Positions 3,730-12,321 of a stretch of 12,581 nt of DNA are shown here, piece by piece; position 1 is the first letter of the stretch, and the number at the start of each line of letters is the position of its first letter. The DNA is taken from assembly GCA_019057635.1 (NCBI GenBank), contig DXJL01000189.1, forward strand, positions 1-12,581, in the 5' to 3' direction. A program made the translations under genes and the position numbers. A model generated the notes under the pieces. That model had not been told where the DNA came from and searched no databases. It saw only the letters and a program-made list of their open reading frames with translations. Source of the DNA: Candidatus Heimdallarchaeota archaeon (GTDB lineage Archaea; Asgardarchaeota; Heimdallarchaeia; Hodarchaeales; Hodarchaeaceae).

Positions 3730-4266
3730 TTATTCTGAATTAATATCACACGAACCTTGAGTTGTAGATTGAAAAGATTTGGACTTAGTGATAACAGATC
3801 GAATAAGTTGAGTGAAAGAATAATTCTCGATCTGTTCAAGCTCTTCTAGAGTGAAGTTCATTTCTCTTAGTGTTTGATGGATTTGTTCTGCTACTTCTGG
3901 ATCTTGTTTATTTCCAACTCCTAGAAAAATAGGTTGGATATCCACAGTCTTATAAAGTTGCTCAAAGGTATGAAAATCAGTTTTGATTTCATTAAAGGCA
4001 TATGAATCGTTTTTTTTAAAAACATATATCATTCCTATGGATCCTCGAAATTCTTTAAAACGAGAAGTCGTAATTTGACTTCCTAGATGGAGATGCTTGA
4101 GATGGAGGCGAACGGGAATGCTACTGACATCCATCTTTATCTCATAACTAGGAGGCGATATATCATCGCTTGGTTTTAATTCTATGAAGTTTTGCAACAC
4201 AGACTCTGCTAGTTTATCTGGGAAACTTGCTACTGAAATTTTGAAAGGAAATTCGCTACGTAGCAT
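3730..4266 (-). CDS. Degenerate Ras/Rab-like small GTPase (pseudo-GTPase)
   Basis: About 178 aa with Rab-like order of elements: FKISV (beta1), VRLHL (beta3), FRGSIGMIYVF (cf. YYRGAxGxxxVYD), AFNEIK (cf. SFxxVK) and LGVGNKQD (G4 NKxD, 3901-3912). No GxxxxGK(S/T) P-loop and no DxxG. Start is ATG 4266 or TTG 4275. Confidence 0.6.
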   Translation of the reverse strand: MLRSEFPFKISVASFPDKLAESVLQNFIELKPSDDISPPSYEIKMDVSSIPVRLHLKHLHLGSQITTSRFKEFRGSIGMIYVFKKNDSYAFNEIKTDFHTFEQLYKTVDIQPIFLGVGNKQDPEVAEQIHQTLREMNFTLEELEQIENYSFTQLIRSVITKSKSFQSTTQGSCDINSE

Positions 4267-4341
4267 GATTATCAATAGAATTTAGTTTTTTAATAAGAAT
4301 TTCATTAGATTTACGAATTTGAAGCTTGATAATTCGAAACA

Positions 4342-4608
4342 CTAACAGCACTGCTTGGATTTCTCAGGTAGATGTAACAATTTACGAACCTTCTTCCGTA
4401 CAACACTAGAAACACAACCACATCCAAGTGGATGAGCTAGTATTGCATCTCTTGGACATTGTAATGCACATGCCCCACATTCTATACATCGTTCACCATT
4501 AACGATCTCAGCCCTTTTATCGTGATTTAAAATGATTATTTGATGGGGACAGACATCTAGACACCAAGCACATCCATTACATATCTCAGTAAATATAACA
4601 GCTACCAT
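4342..4608 (-). CDS. hgcB: HgcB-like 2[4Fe-4S] ferredoxin with Cys-rich tail
   Basis: Two CxxCxxCxxxCP motifs (C10-C20, C41-C51), the second being the HgcB signature CIECGAC. Also GCGC (C63, C65) after the ferredoxin core and a terminal C87-C88. Lies 12 nt downstream of an hgcA-like gene. Confidence 0.88.
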   Translation of the reverse strand: MVAVIFTEICNGCAWCLDVCPHQIIILNHDKRAEIVNGERCIECGACALQCPRDAILAHPLGCGCVSSVVRKKVRKLLHLPEKSKQCC

Positions 4609-4620
4609 CTATACCATCTT

Positions 4621-6285
4621 TCAAAATAATAAATGTTGAATTTCTGAACTAACCAACGGAATAAATATTGCAATAAGACAAAGGATTAATGCCGGTACCA
4701 AAAACAGAGTAAGATCACTTTCGACATCTAAGTGATTAGTATAAGGGGTGTTCCCAGCAAGATCTAGAACTATGAATAAACTCACTACAGTAACCAATGC
4801 TATCCAGAAAATAAAATTATATGGTGAAATGGTTTTTGTCTGAGTTATAAGATAAAGTAAAACCACAATTGAGTTGATTATTGCCACTGAAAGGCCCTTT
4901 TTAAAGAAAGAAGATGTGAAGCTGAAAATTGGGTAGACCCAAATAAATAGCATATTAATAATCAAACCAAGAATAAACAGCTGTAATACCACAGAAACCC
5001 AAAAAGTTGTCAATGGAATCTCTATAGCAGCTAAAATACCAAGAATTAGTAACAAAGGGAGGAAAAGAACACAACTAATGAAGAACGCATGTTGTATTCC
5101 CATTAGAGTTCTAAATGAGAAGTTAAACTCAACTATCGCTGTTTCAGATTCTTTTGTGAATGATTCTAGAAATGGTTCAATATTTTTGATATCTACGGGG
5201 CCAAAAACAGGTTTCCAACCGGCTTTAGACAATTCCTTTCGATCTACTCCTGTTGCTGATAATTGAGGTAATATTAAGGTAGAATGATCAATCCTTTCTT
5301 TGACATCAAATAGCCTAATTGCTTCTAATATTTGTGTATGTGTAAAATGGCCTCCCCCTGCAGCACACCACACATTTATTCCATTCGAATCCACTATTAA
5401 TAGAAAACAATCAACCTTCTCCTTGTTAAGAAGTTTAAAGACAGAATCTACTGTCCAATAGTAATTCGCAGTTACCAGAACCGGTGAATTTCTTCGTGGA
5501 TTCCCAATCCGATATAAGCCAGGAGGTACGCTCTTTCTTGTCAATATTCCATTGACAATACAATAAGCAGTTTTTAATTGTGAAAATGATCCTAAAATAG
5601 CTTTAATGGAGGGAAGTTCTTCAGATATGGCTGAATCATCAACTTTCTTGGTGATTTCGAATAACTTGATTGTTTTCTTTTGAAAAAGAACCGTGCTTTC
5701 AAAAAAGGGATCGATTTTGGTTTCTACTTTCTTTACAGGATTTGTGGAGGGGATGTCCTTAAAAATCGAAACTTGTGCACGGATGAAATTACTAATCGAA
5801 AAACCGATCTTGGATATGCCTGAACTGGGGGCTGTATCGGTAGCAAGAAGGCAAATTCCTTTTTTTTTTAGTAAAAGAGATATCTGTTTCAGGAATAAAG
5901 TTTGTTGAAGAGGAGAAATTTCAGAAAGAGCAAAGGTGGAGATAATAAAATCAAATGAGCCAGATTCTTGAAGTTGTTCGAATATAGGAAAAGCAAGGAA
6001 GTTACCAAGGATGAACTCCAAGTTTATATTCTCTTTTTCAGCCGTTTTTCTTGCATGCACGATCATCTTATCAGAAACATCAATTGCAGTTACTTCTAAC
6101 CCCCGATTAGCCAGATCAATAGCTAATCGTCCTGTTCCACTCCCAATCTCAAGAACACGTCCCTGTTTCCCAATTTTAGTTCTTATTATATCATAAATAT
6201 GTTCAGCTTCAGGGAATCTCTTTTTAAACTCCCAATCGTATGTCTTTGGATCTTTCTCCAATGCTTTCATGTAAACTAAAGACAT
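4621..6285 (-). CDS. hgcA: Class I SAM-dependent methyltransferase fused to an HgcA-like corrinoid-binding membrane protein
   Basis: aa 1-~215 is a methyltransferase (VLEIGSGTG, VTAIDVSDKM, FDFIISTFALSE, LLKKKG). aa ~253-375 is a CdhD/HgcA corrinoid domain (VPPGLYRIGNP, SPVLVTANY, GINVWCAAGGG, LILPQLSATGV, FGPVDIKNI). The C-terminus has about 5 hydrophobic helices with the HgcA-like loops PIFSFTSSFFKKG and AGNTPYT...DVESDL. The symbol means hgcA-like; Hg methylation is unproven. Confidence 0.88.
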   Translation of the reverse strand: MSLVYMKALEKDPKTYDWEFKKRFPEAEHIYDIIRTKIGKQGRVLEIGSGTGRLAIDLANRGLEVTAIDVSDKMIVHARKTAEKENINLEFILGNFLAFPIFEQLQESGSFDFIISTFALSEISPLQQTLFLKQISLLLKKKGICLLATDTAPSSGISKIGFSISNFIRAQVSIFKDIPSTNPVKKVETKIDPFFESTVLFQKKTIKLFEITKKVDDSAISEELPSIKAILGSFSQLKTAYCIVNGILTRKSVPPGLYRIGNPRRNSPVLVTANYYWTVDSVFKLLNKEKVDCFLLIVDSNGINVWCAAGGGHFTHTQILEAIRLFDVKERIDHSTLILPQLSATGVDRKELSKAGWKPVFGPVDIKNIEPFLESFTKESETAIVEFNFSFRTLMGIQHAFFISCVLFLPLLLILGILAAIEIPLTTFWVSVVLQLFILGLIINMLFIWVYPIFSFTSSFFKKGLSVAIINSIVVLLYLITQTKTISPYNFIFWIALVTVVSLFIVLDLAGNTPYTNHLDVESDLTLFLVPALILCLIAIFIPLVSSEIQHLLF

Positions 6286-6397: not shown

Positions 6398-6979
6398 TCA
6401 TTCCATATTCTTAATGGCGTTATATCGAAAACAATTTACTACGTGGTCATTAACCATACCTATTGATTGCATATACGCATAACAGATCGTCGGACCAATA
6501 AAATTAAAACCACGTTTTTTCAGATCCTTGCTTATTCTTACTGAAAGAGGTGTTGATGCTGGGATTTCAGAAAGCGAAAAAAATTGGTTATGGATGGGTT
6601 TATGGTCAATAAACGACCAGATATATTTGTTAAATGAACCAAATTCGTTTTGTACTTCAATGAATCTCTGTGCATTATTTATTGCACTCTTGACCTTCAA
6701 TTTATTACGTATTATGGCTTCATTCACAATTAAACGATCGAAATCTTTGTCTGAAAATTGAGCTACTTTTTTGATGTCAAAATTAGCGAATGCTTTACGA
6801 TAACCTTCTCGTCGTTTCAAGATAGTAGCCCAGCTCAAACCAGCCTGTGCTCCTTCTAAAATTAGTAATTCAAATAGCTCTTGATCATCATGAACTGGTT
6901 CTCCCCACTCCTCATCATGATAATTACGCATTTGTTGTTCCTCACCAGCCCATTCACATCGTTGTTTCTTCTTACTCAA
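6398..6979 (-). CDS. tag: DNA-3-methyladenine glycosylase I
   Basis: RCEW...YHDEEWG, LFELLILEGAQAGLSW, IIRNKLK, GPTICYAYMQSIGMVNDH...C (Zn ligands present). TTG start preceded by GGTG. Confidence 0.96.
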   Translation of the reverse strand: MSKKKQRCEWAGEEQQMRNYHDEEWGEPVHDDQELFELLILEGAQAGLSWATILKRREGYRKAFANFDIKKVAQFSDKDFDRLIVNEAIIRNKLKVKSAINNAQRFIEVQNEFGSFNKYIWSFIDHKPIHNQFFSLSEIPASTPLSVRISKDLKKRGFNFIGPTICYAYMQSIGMVNDHVVNCFRYNAIKNME

Positions 6980-7151: not shown

Positions 7152-8054
7152 ATGAGTGATTTTTTCAGTTTAACTTCAAATAGTAACAAAGAAGCGCAAG
7201 ATCTACTTGTTCTTGGAATTTCATGGGATAAAGCATCCTCTTACAGATTCGGCTCTTTACAGGGTCCGAATTATATTAGAAACGCTACATCATCAAAGAT
7301 TTACAACACTTTTACAGAAACAGGAATAGATTTATCGCAACGATGGAAAGTAAATGATCTTGGAAACATTGATACAAAAGATAAGAATTTTAGTGAGATT
7401 ATCAATAGTATTAGTGACCAGGTAGAAGAACATAGGACCGAAGAACCAATATTATTCTTAGGTGGCGATCATTTAATCACCTATTTTTGTTTACATGCAA
7501 TAAACCCAAAAAATATGGGTATCATATACTTTGATGCTCATCCTGATCTATATAATCATTATGAAGGAAATAAATATTCCCATGCATGTGTTTTAAGAAG
7601 GGTATTAGAGTATACAGATATTAAACCTCACAATTTAGTTCAAATTGGCATTAGAGCGTTTACAAACGAGCAAAGTGTTTTTGCGATTGAGAACGATATT
7701 TTGGTCTTTCCACGAAAGGAAGTGCAAAAGCTTGAAAGTAAGGAAATAGCTACTCAAATTAAAAACAAATTAGGCCATTTAGAACAAATATACCTTTCTA
7801 TAGATCTAGATGTTTTAGATCCCGCCTATGCCCCAGGTGTAGGAAATCCTGAACCAGCGGGTCTATCAACGTCTAACATTATAGATCTAATACATGAATT
7901 AGCAGGATTACCAATAAAGTTCTTTGATATCGTAGAAATTAACCCCAAACATGATTACTCAAAGGTTACAGGATATACCGCGGCTAAAATCATCAAAGAA
8001 ATTCTTGGGATAATTCCACAGAAATCTGTCAGAACGCCTCCCTATAAGGTTTAA
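7152..8054 (+). CDS. speB: Agmatinase (ureohydrolase/arginase family)
   Basis: GSLQGPNYIR, LGGDHLIT, FDAHPDL, SHAC, QIGIR, SIDLDVLDPAYAPGVGNPEPAGL and DIVEINP provide the complete binuclear metal-binding set. Confidence 0.92.
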   Translation: MSDFFSLTSNSNKEAQDLLVLGISWDKASSYRFGSLQGPNYIRNATSSKIYNTFTETGIDLSQRWKVNDLGNIDTKDKNFSEIINSISDQVEEHRTEEPILFLGGDHLITYFCLHAINPKNMGIIYFDAHPDLYNHYEGNKYSHACVLRRVLEYTDIKPHNLVQIGIRAFTNEQSVFAIENDILVFPRKEVQKLESKEIATQIKNKLGHLEQIYLSIDLDVLDPAYAPGVGNPEPAGLSTSNIIDLIHELAGLPIKFFDIVEINPKHDYSKVTGYTAAKIIKEILGIIPQKSVRTPPYKV

Positions 8055-8680: not shown

Positions 8681-10000
8681 CTACTTTTTACGACTATTAT
8701 AAATCCAATAAAATATTCCAAATGCAATTAGTACGATTGGGAGAGAAAAACCAGGGGAGATCGATGGAGCTGTCAACTCTTCTGTCGTGGATGAATCGTC
8801 ATCTTCTGTGGTTGTATCTGTTTCAGAACTCGTAGAATCCTCTGTTGTAGTGGTTGTAGAATTACCTATTATAGGATCTGTTGTTTGCGGTTCAGGGATG
8901 ATAGTTTCTGTAGTTGTTTCAGGGGTTGTAGTAGTAATTACAGTAGTTGTCGTTTCAGTTCCAATTAGGGCATTTGTGTCGTCAAGGTAGTGATATTCAT
9001 CAGAGAGGGTATAAGCGATTAGAAGACCCGAGCTGACTTCATACCAATAAGTACTATTCTCAAGGGGCCTTGAAATATTCCACACTTCGAAATCACCAAC
9101 AGGTACTGAAATGTTTACCTTGTCGGTAACCTGAAAGCTCTCCATACCGAGTGTTACATTTTCTCCAAGAGTTAATTCATTCACATTAATCCATAAAGGC
9201 CAGCCCAAGTCAAAACCTAGCGAGACGAATGTCCATAAATACACACGATCCGTCCAAATAAATTTTGAAATGCTGGACTGGTCAATCAGACTCCCATCAC
9301 CAAACATGTCAACAAAATAATGGGAAACATTCTCACCTGTAACTATAACAGTTTCATTGAGAAGAATAGTTCCATTAACGTCTGTATAAAGGTAAGCTGC
9401 TCTATATCCCACAAAAGGAATATTTGTTTCATCTTGAGATGATGATTTACTTAGATCTCCATTTGTTGTAAGCAAATAGTTTAATCCTTCACCTGAATCA
9501 TATCCAAGCAGAAGACCTGTTGTAACATGGTAATTGTAAAGTCGACCATCGGTCGTATTTATGATAAAGACTGGAAATGTGCCTAACGGGATAGTAAGAT
9601 AATCAACACCAATAACCTCAAGAGATACATCTCCTAGTGTAACATTTTCTCCAACGGTAAGTCTATCAACACTGATCCAACCTGCCCATCCCCATCCCGC
9701 GGGTTGACCAAAATCCCACAAATAGGAATAATCGACCCATACGTCTTTACTAATGACAGATGAAATAGGTAATGAATCATTAGGATATAACTCAAGAAAA
9801 AAGTGAGTCGAATTTTCATCAACGATTTCAACCGTTTCATTATATCCGATGTCATTTACCCATGTAGCAACCAAACCAACTGAAGGAATTGGAACAGAAG
9901 AAGAAACTTGTTTAATCGTTCCCTTTCCAGCAGTAAAAATGGATAAAATAAGAAGTAAACCAAGGAAAATTAAGAATAAATTATTTTTATGCGATACCAT
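8681..10000 (-). CDS. Secreted cell-surface glycoprotein with two beta-rich repeats, Thr/Ser/acidic linker and PGF-CTERM-like sorting signal
   Basis: Hydrophobic N-terminal signal, two homologous ~145 aa domains, many N-x-S/T sequons and a Thr-rich stretch (aa ~348-410). The C-terminus is SPGF + TM helix + RKK. Confidence 0.85.
   Translation of the reverse strand: MVSHKNNLFLIFLGLLLILSIFTAGKGTIKQVSSSVPIPSVGLVATWVNDIGYNETVEIVDENSTHFFLELYPNDSLPISSVISKDVWVDYSYLWDFGQPAGWGWAGWISVDRLTVGENVTLGDVSLEVIGVDYLTIPLGTFPVFIINTTDGRLYNYHVTTGLLLGYDSGEGLNYLLTTNGDLSKSSSQDETNIPFVGYRAAYLYTDVNGTILLNETVIVTGENVSHYFVDMFGDGSLIDQSSISKFIWTDRVYLWTFVSLGFDLGWPLWINVNELTLGENVTLGMESFQVTDKVNISVPVGDFEVWNISRPLENSTYWYEVSSGLLIAYTLSDEYHYLDDTNALIGTETTTTVITTTTPETTTETIIPEPQTTDPIIGNSTTTTTEDSTSSETDTTTEDDDSSTTEELTAPSISPGFSLPIVLIAFGIFYWIYNSRKK
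8972..9889 (-). repeat. Intragenic tandem domain duplication (aa 38-180 and aa 194-343)
   Basis: Colinear matches: IPSVG/IPFVG, NETV/NETV, ENSTHF/ENVSHY, ISKDVW/ISKFIW, YLW/YLW, WISVDRLTVGENVTLG/WINVNELTLGENVTLG, IPLGTF/VPVGDF, TGLLLGY/SGLLIAY, YLLTTN/YLDDTN. Confidence 0.9.
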
Positions 10001-10216: not shown

Positions 10217-11185
10217 TCATTTTTCCAAAAGAGGAATTATCTCTCCTATCTTTTCCTTTAATTTACTAGCAGACTTTTTTAATAATAGCTGTTCTTGTTC
10301 ATTTAACTTGATTTCCAGAACTTTTTTAACACCTTTCTTAGTAATTATTGCAGGTAAACTCAGATATACATCATGAATGTCCTGAAAGCCATTTACCAAG
10401 CAGGAAACAGGTAAGATTGAATTTTCATCATTAAAGATTGCAGCAGTGATCCTTACAAGGGCTAATCCAATTCCATACGAAGTCTCTCCTTTCTTCTTGA
10501 TTATCTTAGCACCTGAATCACGTACCTCAATAAAGATTTTCTCAAGTTCCTCTTCATGATTACAGATATTACAGTTCTCACAGATAGGACAGTATTCTTT
10601 AATCAAGTTACCCCCAACTAGAACTCTACTCCAGACAGGAAATTCTGTTTCACCGTGCTCTCCTAAGATATAGCCATGAACATTCCGAGGATCAACTTTA
10701 CAATGAGCAGCGATTAGATTACGAAAACGAGCAGTATCTAACACTGTACCCGCACCGATTACTTCTGATTCGGGTTTTTTTGAAATTTTCTGGGCCACAT
10801 AAGATAGAATATCAACAGGATTTGTCACTACCAGAAAAAGAGCTGCAGGAGCATGCTTCGTGATTTTAGGAATAATTTCTTTGTAAAGGGTGACATTAGC
10901 TTTAGTTAATTCTAAGCGTGATTCTCCAAGTTTACGATTTCTTCCTGCAGTAATCACAACAAGATCAGATCCTTGGATATCTTCATATTCTCCTACTTCT
11001 AGCTTAACAGGTGAAGTATACGGAATACCATGTGATAAATCCATGATTTCTCCTTGCACTTTTTGTTTATCGATATCTACAATTATAATATGACGTGCAA
11101 GTCCTCTAATCATTAAAGCATAAGCATAACGGATCCCGACATTTCCCCCCCCAATTATGGCGACTTTAGGGCTCAGTTCTCGCAT
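10217..11185 (-). CDS. ldh: L-lactate/malate dehydrogenase family protein (LDH-like scaffold with Arg at the specificity position)
   Basis: IIGGGNVG (NAD binding), DLSHG, VITAG, VTNPVD, GTVLDTARF, GEHG (catalytic His) and KGETSYGIG. The substrate is uncertain (see findings). Confidence 0.9.
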   Translation of the reverse strand: MRELSPKVAIIGGGNVGIRYAYALMIRGLARHIIIVDIDKQKVQGEIMDLSHGIPYTSPVKLEVGEYEDIQGSDLVVITAGRNRKLGESRLELTKANVTLYKEIIPKITKHAPAALFLVVTNPVDILSYVAQKISKKPESEVIGAGTVLDTARFRNLIAAHCKVDPRNVHGYILGEHGETEFPVWSRVLVGGNLIKEYCPICENCNICNHEEELEKIFIEVRDSGAKIIKKKGETSYGIGLALVRITAAIFNDENSILPVSCLVNGFQDIHDVYLSLPAIITKKGVKKVLEIKLNEQEQLLLKKSASKLKEKIGEIIPLLEK

Positions 11186-11229: not shown

Positions 11230-12321
11230 TTAGTAGTAAAACTCCCTTGCTTTTTCTGCAAAGCTAGCATCAGTGAGAATATGTGTATTATCAATGAATT
11301 GATCTACGGATCCTATAGAGTATTTCACTTTATCAAGTGGAGGTCTTAGCAATTTTTTTAATTCTACGATTATCTTCTGGACATCGATAACAGTTTGATC
11401 ACGAGAGTGATACTGAGTAGGCTTCAATTTTATTTCGGGTGAAATTTTAAGAGAATTTTGATAATTAAGGAGAATGAGATAGGCTTTACTCAATAATTCC
11501 TCCCGTTTTTGCCAACTATTTTGGTCCAAAATGGCCAGCAGGACAGGTTGTAAATCAGTGGCAATTGGTAGAAACGAAAACGAATAGGCGAACCATTTAG
11601 GATAAGGTATGTATTTTTTGCTTAAAATAAACGCCAGTCTAATAATATATCTCACAAGTCGAGCTGCTTCAAGTTTGGATCCTAAATCATCTCCTCTAGG
11701 AGCGGATCGTCCAACAAAAGCCATTTCTTCAGCAATATGATCCCATTCAGACACTAGTTTGTAGTACCAGACATTGTCAGGATAATAATTAAAGAATTTT
11801 CTTACTTTCAGTATTTTTCCATGGCCATGATGATACACTCTGCCAGATGTTATCTCTAACAGTCTTTGTTCAGGTAAAATGAGCCAATCAATATTTGTTA
11901 ACTCTATTGTTTCAATGTTTAAAACCTTCATTAAATAAGCACTTATGCTGTAGATTTTCACACGATGGTTTACTAGGCCTGAAGATCTTGGTTCTAAGAA
12001 CTGATTCATGGCGTCTGATGGGTCAGGTTCGCTCCAATGAGTCGAATAACCTCGGATACAATAAGGTAATTTTTGCTGTAGCAGTAAAATTATCTCATTT
12101 TTGTTCTTTGAGTAGTCTGTTTCTCCTAAGAATAACTGCAGACGGGGCCCCCAGTGATGATCTGAGGATACGGGATCATCGAACTCCAACACCTCGGATC
12201 CAGGACCGATTAATGCCGCATCATACCTCAATAAAGGATAATTTTCAGTTAAAATTGGTTTAACTGCTTCTTCAAAAAAAATACGAGACAATTCCAATCC
12301 AGGGATAAAGGAAGGTACCAT
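11230..12321 (-). CDS. DUF4037-domain protein (putative nucleotidyltransferase-like fold)
   Basis: GLELSRIFF, LIGPGSEVLEFDDPVSSDHHWGPR, PEQRLLEITSGRVY, YYPDNVW and YIPYPKW match the DUF4037 family as I recall it. Confidence 0.8.
   Translation of the reverse strand: MVPSFIPGLELSRIFFEEAVKPILTENYPLLRYDAALIGPGSEVLEFDDPVSSDHHWGPRLQLFLGETDYSKNKNEIILLLQQKLPYCIRGYSTHWSEPDPSDAMNQFLEPRSSGLVNHRVKIYSISAYLMKVLNIETIELTNIDWLILPEQRLLEITSGRVYHHGHGKILKVRKFFNYYPDNVWYYKLVSEWDHIAEEMAFVGRSAPRGDDLGSKLEAARLVRYIIRLAFILSKKYIPYPKWFAYSFSFLPIATDLQPVLLAILDQNSWQKREELLSKAYLILLNYQNSLKISPEIKLKPTQYHSRDQTVIDVQKIIVELKKLLRPPLDKVKYSIGSVDQFIDNTHILTDASFAEKAREFYY

Follow-up and report, generated by a model that had tools for sequence, protein, structure and literature searches.

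An HgcA-like corrinoid protein fused to a SAM methyltransferase and paired with an HgcB-like ferredoxin in an Asgard archaeon

What is an S-adenosylmethionine (SAM)-dependent methyltransferase doing in one polypeptide with a corrinoid protein of the HgcA type? The question is raised by two adjacent genes on the minus strand of contig DXJL01000189.1, all 12,581 bases of which (hereafter, the window) were analysed and which belongs to a 3.19-Mb, 91.6% complete genome of an Asgard archaeon. The first gene (4621..6285) encodes a 554-amino-acid protein consisting of a CpaM-like methyltransferase domain, an HgcA-like corrinoid domain and a membrane domain, and the second (4342..4608, hgcB) encodes an 88-amino-acid HgcB-like ferredoxin. 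What the HgcA family does natively is unsettled: many suspect that methylating mercury is only a side reaction, and the use of SAM by HgcAB is not understood. As judged from profile matches and trees, the gene pair is a permuted, divergent Asgard member of the system composed of CpaM and the HgcAB-like fusion protein, a pair already flagged in the database of protein families. In this branch an HgcA-like protein and a SAM methyltransferase are tied together, as neighbouring genes in bacteria and as one fused chain in Asgard archaea and Chloroflexota, thus offering a concrete and testable methyl route; its value lies in strong evidence for coupling, a wide spread among Asgard archaea and a lead towards arsenic.

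Modules of the fusion protein and its ferredoxin

The fusion gene is one uninterrupted open reading frame (ORF) with domains recognised by both Pfam and NCBIfam; databases also list a 549-amino-acid form (P0001), whose first residue is Met6 (6270). An earlier reading of this DNA, made from the letters alone (the sequence-only reading), had placed the 554-residue frame, the SAM-binding motif, the Cys307 codon and a gap of 12 nucleotides before the ferredoxin gene exactly where they are found, and its assignment of a SAM methyltransferase, an HgcA-type corrinoid domain and about five helices was borne out by Pfam, NCBIfam and an AlphaFold2 model. Residues 1–215 (5641..6285) constitute the class I SAM-dependent methyltransferase domain, whose relation to CpaM follows from NCBIfam, Pfam and fold matches: Pfam Methyltransf_25 covers residues 44–143 (E 3.9e-18), the PDB entries 9fd3, 6mro and 1ve3, all SAM methyltransferases, match its fold, and the NCBIfam CpaM model NF043040 aligns residues 2–191 with its positions 1–191 of 216 at 123 bits (cut-off 180), where Asgard fusions score 126–137 bits and a Chloroflexota fusion (P0096) scores 269.9 bits. 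The class I SAM-binding motifs are intact, as seen from the translation and its conservation; motif I (VLEIGSGTG, residues 44–52) lies at 6130..6156, and across 106 fusions G50, G52, D69, E122 and G143 are invariant, L45 and G48 being conserved in at least 90%.

A linker (residues 216–247, 5545..5640), lying between the domain matches and modelled in blocks with a predicted local distance difference test (pLDDT) value of 74–84, leads to the HgcA-type corrinoid-binding domain (residues 248–385, 5131..5544). The latter is matched by Pfam CdhD at residues 252–370 (E 2.8e-17, the last third of the profile only, positions 267–384 of 387), by the NCBIfam model HgcAB_like (NF043039; residues 252–516, 217.7 bits, below the cut-off of 285) and, in a sequence search of the PDB, by the C-terminal domain of the large subunit of the corrinoid iron–sulfur protein (CFeSP; 2h9a and 4djd), residues 252–374 aligning with its last 120 residues at E ~5e-10. 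The nearest chains in that search were this CFeSP domain and small methyltransferases, with no solved HgcA among them. Cys307 (codon 5365..5367), in the cap motif NVWCAAGGGH, is the predicted cobalt ligand on the grounds of its invariance and of motif comparison, W306 and C307 being invariant in alignments of 24 and of 106 fusions. The membrane domain (residues 389–545, 4651..5121) is composed of five long helices, modelled at residues 389–420, 426–449, 460–482, 488–512 and 518–545, and the alignment to the NCBIfam HgcA_corrinoid profile (NF040863) runs on to residue 546. With 106 homologues as input, AlphaFold2 gave a model of high confidence over its whole length (mean pLDDT 90.8, predicted template modelling score 0.86), in which a Rossmann-type domain at the N-terminus is followed by an alpha/beta domain and these five helices, so that, by profiles and model, the canonical HgcA layout of a corrinoid domain followed by about five transmembrane helices is present. 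A complex prediction of residues 1–215 with residues 245–554 and SAM scored 0.10 and 0.28, the mark being 0.32, values that weigh on neither side as to binding.

The ferredoxin, known from its translation and its match to NF040864 and also recognised by Pfam Fer4 families, contains two CX2CX2CX3CP motifs (C10–C20 and C41–C51), a GCGC motif (Cys63 and Cys65) and a C-terminal Cys87–Cys88 pair. The HgcB_ferredoxin model NF040864 aligns residues 7–88, tail included, with its positions 13–93 of 93 at 63.1 bits, below its cut-off of 99; the Cys-tailed HgcB-type ferredoxin proposed earlier is upheld. The hgcB gene and the fusion ORF share one reading frame, and the boundary (4609..4623) consists of the TGA of the fusion gene (4621–4623) and 12 nucleotides with an in-frame TAG, three codons on, before the ATG of hgcB. 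With both a TGA and a TAG in between, these are two genes rather than a read-through candidate. Read across the boundary, the HgcAB_like profile scores 263.1 bits (cut-off 285) and covers positions 15–349 of 350, crossing one TGA and one TAG. The first six bases of hgcB are repeated just upstream, before the TAG, and the boundary looks like a recent fission or a fusion-prone site.

Coupling of the three modules

The NCBIfam pair NF043040 (CpaM) and NF043039 (HgcAB-like fusion protein) presents the same three modules in the same order, and the window protein matches both profiles best or near-best. Unlike the definition of NF043039, however, the HgcA-like and ferredoxin parts are not one polypeptide here: the fusion point is shifted to the methyltransferase and the corrinoid protein, with the ferredoxin separate. 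The window ferredoxin moreover keeps GCGC and the C-terminal CC; of 43 fused proteins, by contrast, 21 are devoid of Cys beyond the second cluster.

Two neighbourhood surveys bear on whether these modules belong together. Among 80 genome loci related to the fusion gene, a ferredoxin ORF lies within 400 nucleotides downstream in 72 (both cluster motifs in 68, one in 4), and six of the eight remaining loci are contig ends; the fusion gene and the ferredoxin are the only conserved unit, the other neighbours in the window recurring only in the four closest loci (L009–L012). The second survey covered 80 metagenome loci encoding HgcAB-like fusions, 73 of them with room to judge. A CpaM-like frame stands directly upstream on the same strand in 65 of the 80, is fused in six more and lies 937 nucleotides away in one; the others comprise seven where the contig ends too soon and one that is without CpaM despite room. 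A CpaM-like frame, upstream or fused, is thus present in 71 of the 73 informative loci, the 72nd being that at 937 nucleotides, and the sequence-only reading was right in naming a separate methyltransferase gene as a neighbour of fused HgcAB-like paralogs. In addition, single chains pass both family cut-offs: the triple fusions P0100 and P0093 score 334 and 355 bits with HgcAB_like (cut-off 285) and 234 and 250 bits with CpaM (cut-off 180). The four architectures require 16 changes on the tree, meaning that fusion and fission have been repeated. From the conserved ferredoxin, the adjacency or fusion of CpaM and the triple fusions, we conclude that the methyltransferase, HgcA-like and ferredoxin modules almost certainly work together, as genomic context and domain architecture indicate. 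The Rosetta-stone argument advanced for the window is sound on the same adjacency, triple fusions and repeated changes of fusion state.

The association itself had not gone unseen. NCBI curators had already named CpaM for its association with the HgcAB-like fusion, so that the supposition of a rare or unrecognised architecture has to be given up: this fusion recurs in numerous assemblies of Asgard archaea and Chloroflexota, and the partner methyltransferase has an NCBI family name. A search for the phrase "corrinoid protein-associated methyltransferase" returned no paper among the matches listed, the listed matches to "CpaM" being unrelated acronyms. Likewise, in literature on hgcA, fused hgcAB, Asgard archaea and acr3, which here and below is represented by retrieved passages, no description of the methyltransferase fusion or of an arsR–acr3 context appeared among the matches listed. 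At true hgcAB loci, of which 301 Chloroflexota genomes yielded two, a sample too small to carry weight, no CpaM-like ORF was present in flanks of ~1.3–1.5 kb.

A SAM-to-corrinoid route and the place within the HgcA family

Referring to these associations, we consider it rather probable that the two genes constitute the Asgard form of a three-module system in which CpaM, HgcA-like and HgcB-like components pass a methyl group from SAM to a corrinoid and on to an acceptor. The methyltransferase and HgcA-like modules are joined in one polypeptide here, with the ferredoxin separate; in many bacteria the methyltransferase is the separate component, with the HgcA-like and ferredoxin modules fused, and in some organisms all three form one chain. 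In the first step of the predicted mechanism, the ferredoxin would reduce the cobalt of the Cys307-capped corrinoid to Co(I), to which the fused methyltransferase domain would then move the methyl group of SAM, yielding a methyl-corrinoid; in the third step, at the membrane, a soft acceptor would receive the methyl group, this acceptor probably being a metal or metalloid bound by the cysteine tail of the ferredoxin. We infer this SAM-to-corrinoid-to-acceptor sequence as the best mechanism. SAM is a plausible donor for the family since purified HgcAB uses it as stoichiometric methyl donor according to passages of PMC11588087, a report that the sequence-only reading had correctly mentioned as published.

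The large subunit of CFeSP (CdhE, AcsC; 2h9a and 4djd) has a homologous corrinoid-binding domain; however, the window protein has neither its N-terminal cluster domain nor its barrel, possesses a membrane domain and a cap Cys instead, and does not align with the CFeSP or CdhD/CdhE models at full length, the NCBIfam match, like that of Pfam, being terminal (positions 323–448 of 450). Apart from that of the fusion protein, the genome (91.6% complete) contains no CdhD-family domain, nor was a CFeSP found in it, and a role in the acetyl-CoA pathway is thereby excluded.

Several points weigh against the proposed route. To our knowledge, no class I SAM methyltransferase methylates a protein-bound corrinoid, and the literature searched yielded no experiment on any member of the branch. 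All four NCBIfam scores (HgcA, HgcAB-like, CpaM and HgcB) lie under the family cut-offs; they are clear homology nonetheless. Canonical HgcAB reportedly uses SAM without such a domain, so that the domain is not obviously required, and cultured organisms with fused HgcAB made no methylmercury in the passages available from PMC4646819 and PMC10087281. CobS was not found in the genome, at its given completeness, and the corrinoid cofactor is therefore probably salvaged, unless this gap reflects incompleteness. Finally, the nine loci of the window's own clade have no arsenic genes nearby, and their neighbours vary, so that no acceptor can be inferred from their context.

A different division of labour has to be weighed first, in which the methyltransferase domain and the ferredoxin serve as a repair module only, SAM and an electron re-methylating cobalt that has fallen to Co(II), with the routine methyl group coming from another donor. 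The precedent is the activation domain of methionine synthase, in which SAM and a low-potential electron donor methylate a protein-bound corrinoid whose cobalt has fallen to Co(II); that domain has another fold, and SAM is used there for repair only. An electron donor joined to a SAM-binding module matches this logic of reductive methylation, and the triple fusions and the adjacency of CpaM fit repair equally well. On the other hand, no second methyl-donor methyltransferase gene is conserved beside the pair in the 80 loci, the genome is without any other CdhD-family protein, and for purified HgcAB, SAM is the stoichiometric donor (PMC11588087, in passages). With these points taken together, we regard a purely restorative function as unlikely.

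Could the pair be a true mercury methylase, that is, an HgcA orthologue with an extra domain and its HgcB? The likeness to canonical HgcA and HgcB (NF040863 and NF040864) is considerable, comprising the corrinoid domain with its cap-helix Cys, the five helices and an adjacent two-cluster ferredoxin with extra Cys residues and a terminal CC, and the best PDB fold match to the C-terminal half is 9a0b_A, a deposited HgcAB model (E 7.1e-13, 303 columns), followed by many SAM methyltransferases. Canonical HgcA, however, has no methyltransferase domain, and with the HgcA_corrinoid model the window protein obtains only 173.1 bits over residues 252–546 (cut-off 275), whereas the true HgcAs P0159 and P0216 reach 382.3 and 386.9 bits. 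The canonical cap-helix motif is N(V/I)WCA(A/G)GK; the window motif has the Cys and is without the canonical Lys, ending in GG rather than GK. The form NVWCAAGGGH is common to the window and the fused HgcAB-like proteins, true HgcA has NVWCAAGKG, and a large Loki-type fusion group has NVWCAARGN/D; where a protein has neither a methyltransferase nor a ferredoxin domain, NVWCAAGKG is met most often (50 of 65 counted among the motifs listed).

The trees also set the protein apart. In an unrooted tree of 135 corrinoid-plus-membrane regions, a quick search with clade labels anchored by NCBIfam scores, 53 true HgcAs form one clade (support 100) with the window outside it; in the other half of the tree, which also contains the HgcAB-like, triple and Anaerolineae fusions, the window belongs to a small fusion clade (support 99). 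A second quick search was rooted with the corrinoid domains of four Asgard CdhE proteins, without eight long-branch rows and with a third of the true HgcAs retained; its first split, the outgroup being separated at 100, divides true HgcA (support 89) from all methyltransferase-linked forms (support 85). The corrinoid domain thus stands apart both from CdhE and from the true-HgcA clade. The Loki-type clade is unstable, standing beside true HgcA in the unrooted tree (Shimodaira–Hasegawa-like approximate likelihood ratio test 84, under the mark of 95), which might speak for a methylase, and with the methyltransferase-linked forms in the rooted one (85); since its position differs between the trees, no conclusion is drawn from it. 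Together with the failure of cultured carriers of related fused HgcAB to make methylmercury in the sources cited above, these results leave a mercury methylase in the strict sense a distinctly improbable reading. As far as scores, motif and trees can tell, the window protein is related to the mercury methylase HgcA without being its orthologue and belongs to a non-canonical branch, so that the designation HgcA given earlier does not hold strictly.

Our trees agree with the two-clade picture of HgcA drawn by Lin et al. (PMC10083202), in the passages available of which Thor- and Lokiarchaeota are placed in an "HgcAB subtree" and read as carrying an hgcA–hgcB fusion, the first 327 alignment positions having been dropped as poorly aligned. 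Unlike this reading, most Asgard genes at the loci examined here are methyltransferase fusions accompanied by a separate ferredoxin.

A further possibility is that the corrinoid and ferredoxin modules perform redox chemistry, for example reductive dehalogenation or reduction of methylated metalloids, while the methyltransferase acts directly on the same substrate. Arsenic methylation requires alternating methylation and reduction, which would suit such an arrangement, and HgcAB is described as dechlorinating CCl4 in passages of a 2026 preprint (10.64898/2026.04.26.720869). A direct comparison with ArsM does not favour it: the class I SAM methyltransferase fold is shared, but the window protein scores only 28.9 bits with the ArsM model NF040539, far under its cut-off of 240, and residues 1–215 hold a single, unconserved Cys, leaving no conserved cysteines in the methyltransferase domain, which is therefore not like a metalloid-binding methyltransferase. 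Moreover, the invariant Cys307 and the cap motif are features tied to methyl transfer in HgcA. We accordingly hold the redox alternative to be very doubtful.

Acceptor context, spread and neighbouring genes

For the acceptor in the proposed methyl route, the Loki-type sister clade of Asgard archaea (cap motif WCAARG, 66 loci) offers a context. A divergently oriented regulator gene of the arsR family is present in 36 of the 66 loci, an ACR3-family arsenite exporter gene stands directly upstream on the same strand in 31, and a MarR regulator is found in a further 15; the ArsR match scores 67.8 bits (cut-off 55), and that of acr3, nearly full length, 269 bits (cut-off 282.8). The recurrent operon (L017–L087; e.g., L084:6001-8843 and L080:2918-5308) runs from divergent arsR, sometimes through a DUF166 gene, to acr3, the fusion gene, the hgcB-like gene and two small proteins, a Cys-rich one of ~130–142 amino acids and one of ~105–115 amino acids, for which (142- and 105-residue examples) no credible family match was obtained at E up to 5. 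A Loki-type gene with the arsR–acr3 operon upstream is also seen on L025, labelled Nanopelagicaceae bacterium, and one with the downstream genes only on the short contig L071, labelled Bathyarchaeota; both contigs are probably mis-binned. The arsR–acr3 context points to arsenic or antimony for the Loki-type clade and, by extension, to soft metalloids as candidate acceptors for the family. It is in keeping with earlier reports, in the passages retrieved, that ars genes stand in the vicinity of canonical hgcAB (PMC7438021) and that hgcAB expression responds to arsenic (preprint 10.1101/2022.10.17.512643). The sister clade thereby names a candidate substrate, and arsM could be expected in its arsR–acr3 operons. 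A more ambitious version, which we regard as a conjecture with the balance of probability well against it, would make the unit a self-contained SAM-to-corrinoid-to-metalloid machine, the Loki-type operons a second, ArsM-independent way of methylating arsenite (or antimonite), and canonical HgcAB, the mercury methylase, a later offshoot of this more ancient system, with the methyltransferase lost. In the window genome, an acr3 gene above the cut-off is located elsewhere (C111:6640-7599), not near the fusion gene.

How widespread is the fusion? Among 267 related proteins, pooled from two database searches and then domain-scanned, 122 combine methyltransferase and corrinoid domains, 15 have these and the ferredoxin, 42 have corrinoid and ferredoxin domains, and 88 are the corrinoid protein alone. 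A scan with one genome per species found 201 relatives of the fusion, the best 80 of which are almost all Asgard (Promethearchaeota/Loki-, Hod-, Heimdall-, Thor-, Hermod-, Odin- and Sigynarchaeota), plus four from Anaerolineae. At a threshold of E 1e-20, the profile built from 24 fusions matches 292 of the 400 genomes of the Asgard phylum, 63 of the 90 of high quality and, within the genus of the window, 17 of 21; weaker ones among the 292 matches are probably partial, while most of the best-scoring places listed cover the whole profile, some full-length matches lying in single-contig Asgard genomes. In the ESM Atlas the same architecture is represented by one cluster in archaea (140 members) and two in Chloroflexota (110 and 67 members), one cluster being auto-named mitochondrial ubiquinone methyltransferase; other relatives are annotated merely as "methyltransferase domain-containing protein" or as ubiquinone methyltransferases. 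The fusion genes are common and misannotated in databases. Since they are common in marine-sediment Asgard genomes, surveys of mercury methylators may take them as hgcA-like or discard them. Triple fusions of 582–644 amino acids are represented by P0093, P0100–P0103 and P0131–P0153 and by genome places such as G353:C39:7861-9615, and Asgard genomes also contain open frames of 645–672 amino acids.

That the fusion is an artefact of assembly or gene calling, a suspicion nourished by the fact that the sole contig to cover the stretch from end to end (run X1) may derive from the source of the window itself, is practically inconceivable, being refuted by the 137 of 267 database proteins with the fusion, the 201 genome relatives and the full-length matches in many Asgard genomes, with a confident full-length structure model and with contigs of three other studies overlapping the linker region (5568–5736, 5471–5620 and 5421–5625). 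The earlier concern about a chimeric junction is settled by these contigs and database proteins. In runs X2–X4, parts of the stretch are without contig cover (e.g., 4584–4796), which carries no evidential weight. At 5359–5391, very short contigs (38–54 nucleotides) from all four runs pile on the stretch coding for the cap motif and then diverge, probably representing the conserved motif of homologues in other organisms.

The Asgard origin supposed from the sequence agrees with the nearest public relative of the fusion gene, a Candidatus Heimdallarchaeota archaeon B3_Heim protein with 89% identity, after which further relatives carry the label Hodarchaeota. The neighbours of further relatives are unrelated, namely a Na/Ca exchanger, a beta-lactamase family protein, a radical SAM protein and an aldo-keto reductase. 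In two related loci, a gene for a radical SAM protein (L015:4858-6000, contig labelled Thorarchaeota, and L016:4858-6000, contig labelled Heimdallarchaeota) directly adjoins the fusion gene at its start.

In the window, a 181-residue ORF on the minus strand (3730–4275) begins 66 nucleotides downstream of hgcB; it is conserved only in L009–L012 and has no credible family match, even at E up to 5. Upstream of the fusion gene by 112 nucleotides and likewise on the minus strand lies the gene for DNA-3-methyladenine glycosylase I (Tag; 6398–6979, 236.7 bits, cut-off 232.5), conserved at this position only in the same four loci; a link of this neighbour to alkylation damage is speculation. A 439-residue ORF (8681–10000), without a family match, has a Thr-rich stretch and a hydrophobic C-terminus. 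The remaining genes are ordinary ones, encoding an N6/N4 DNA methylase (117–1841), an arginase-family enzyme (7152–8054), a lactate/malate dehydrogenase (10217–11185) and a DUF4037 protein (11230–12321).

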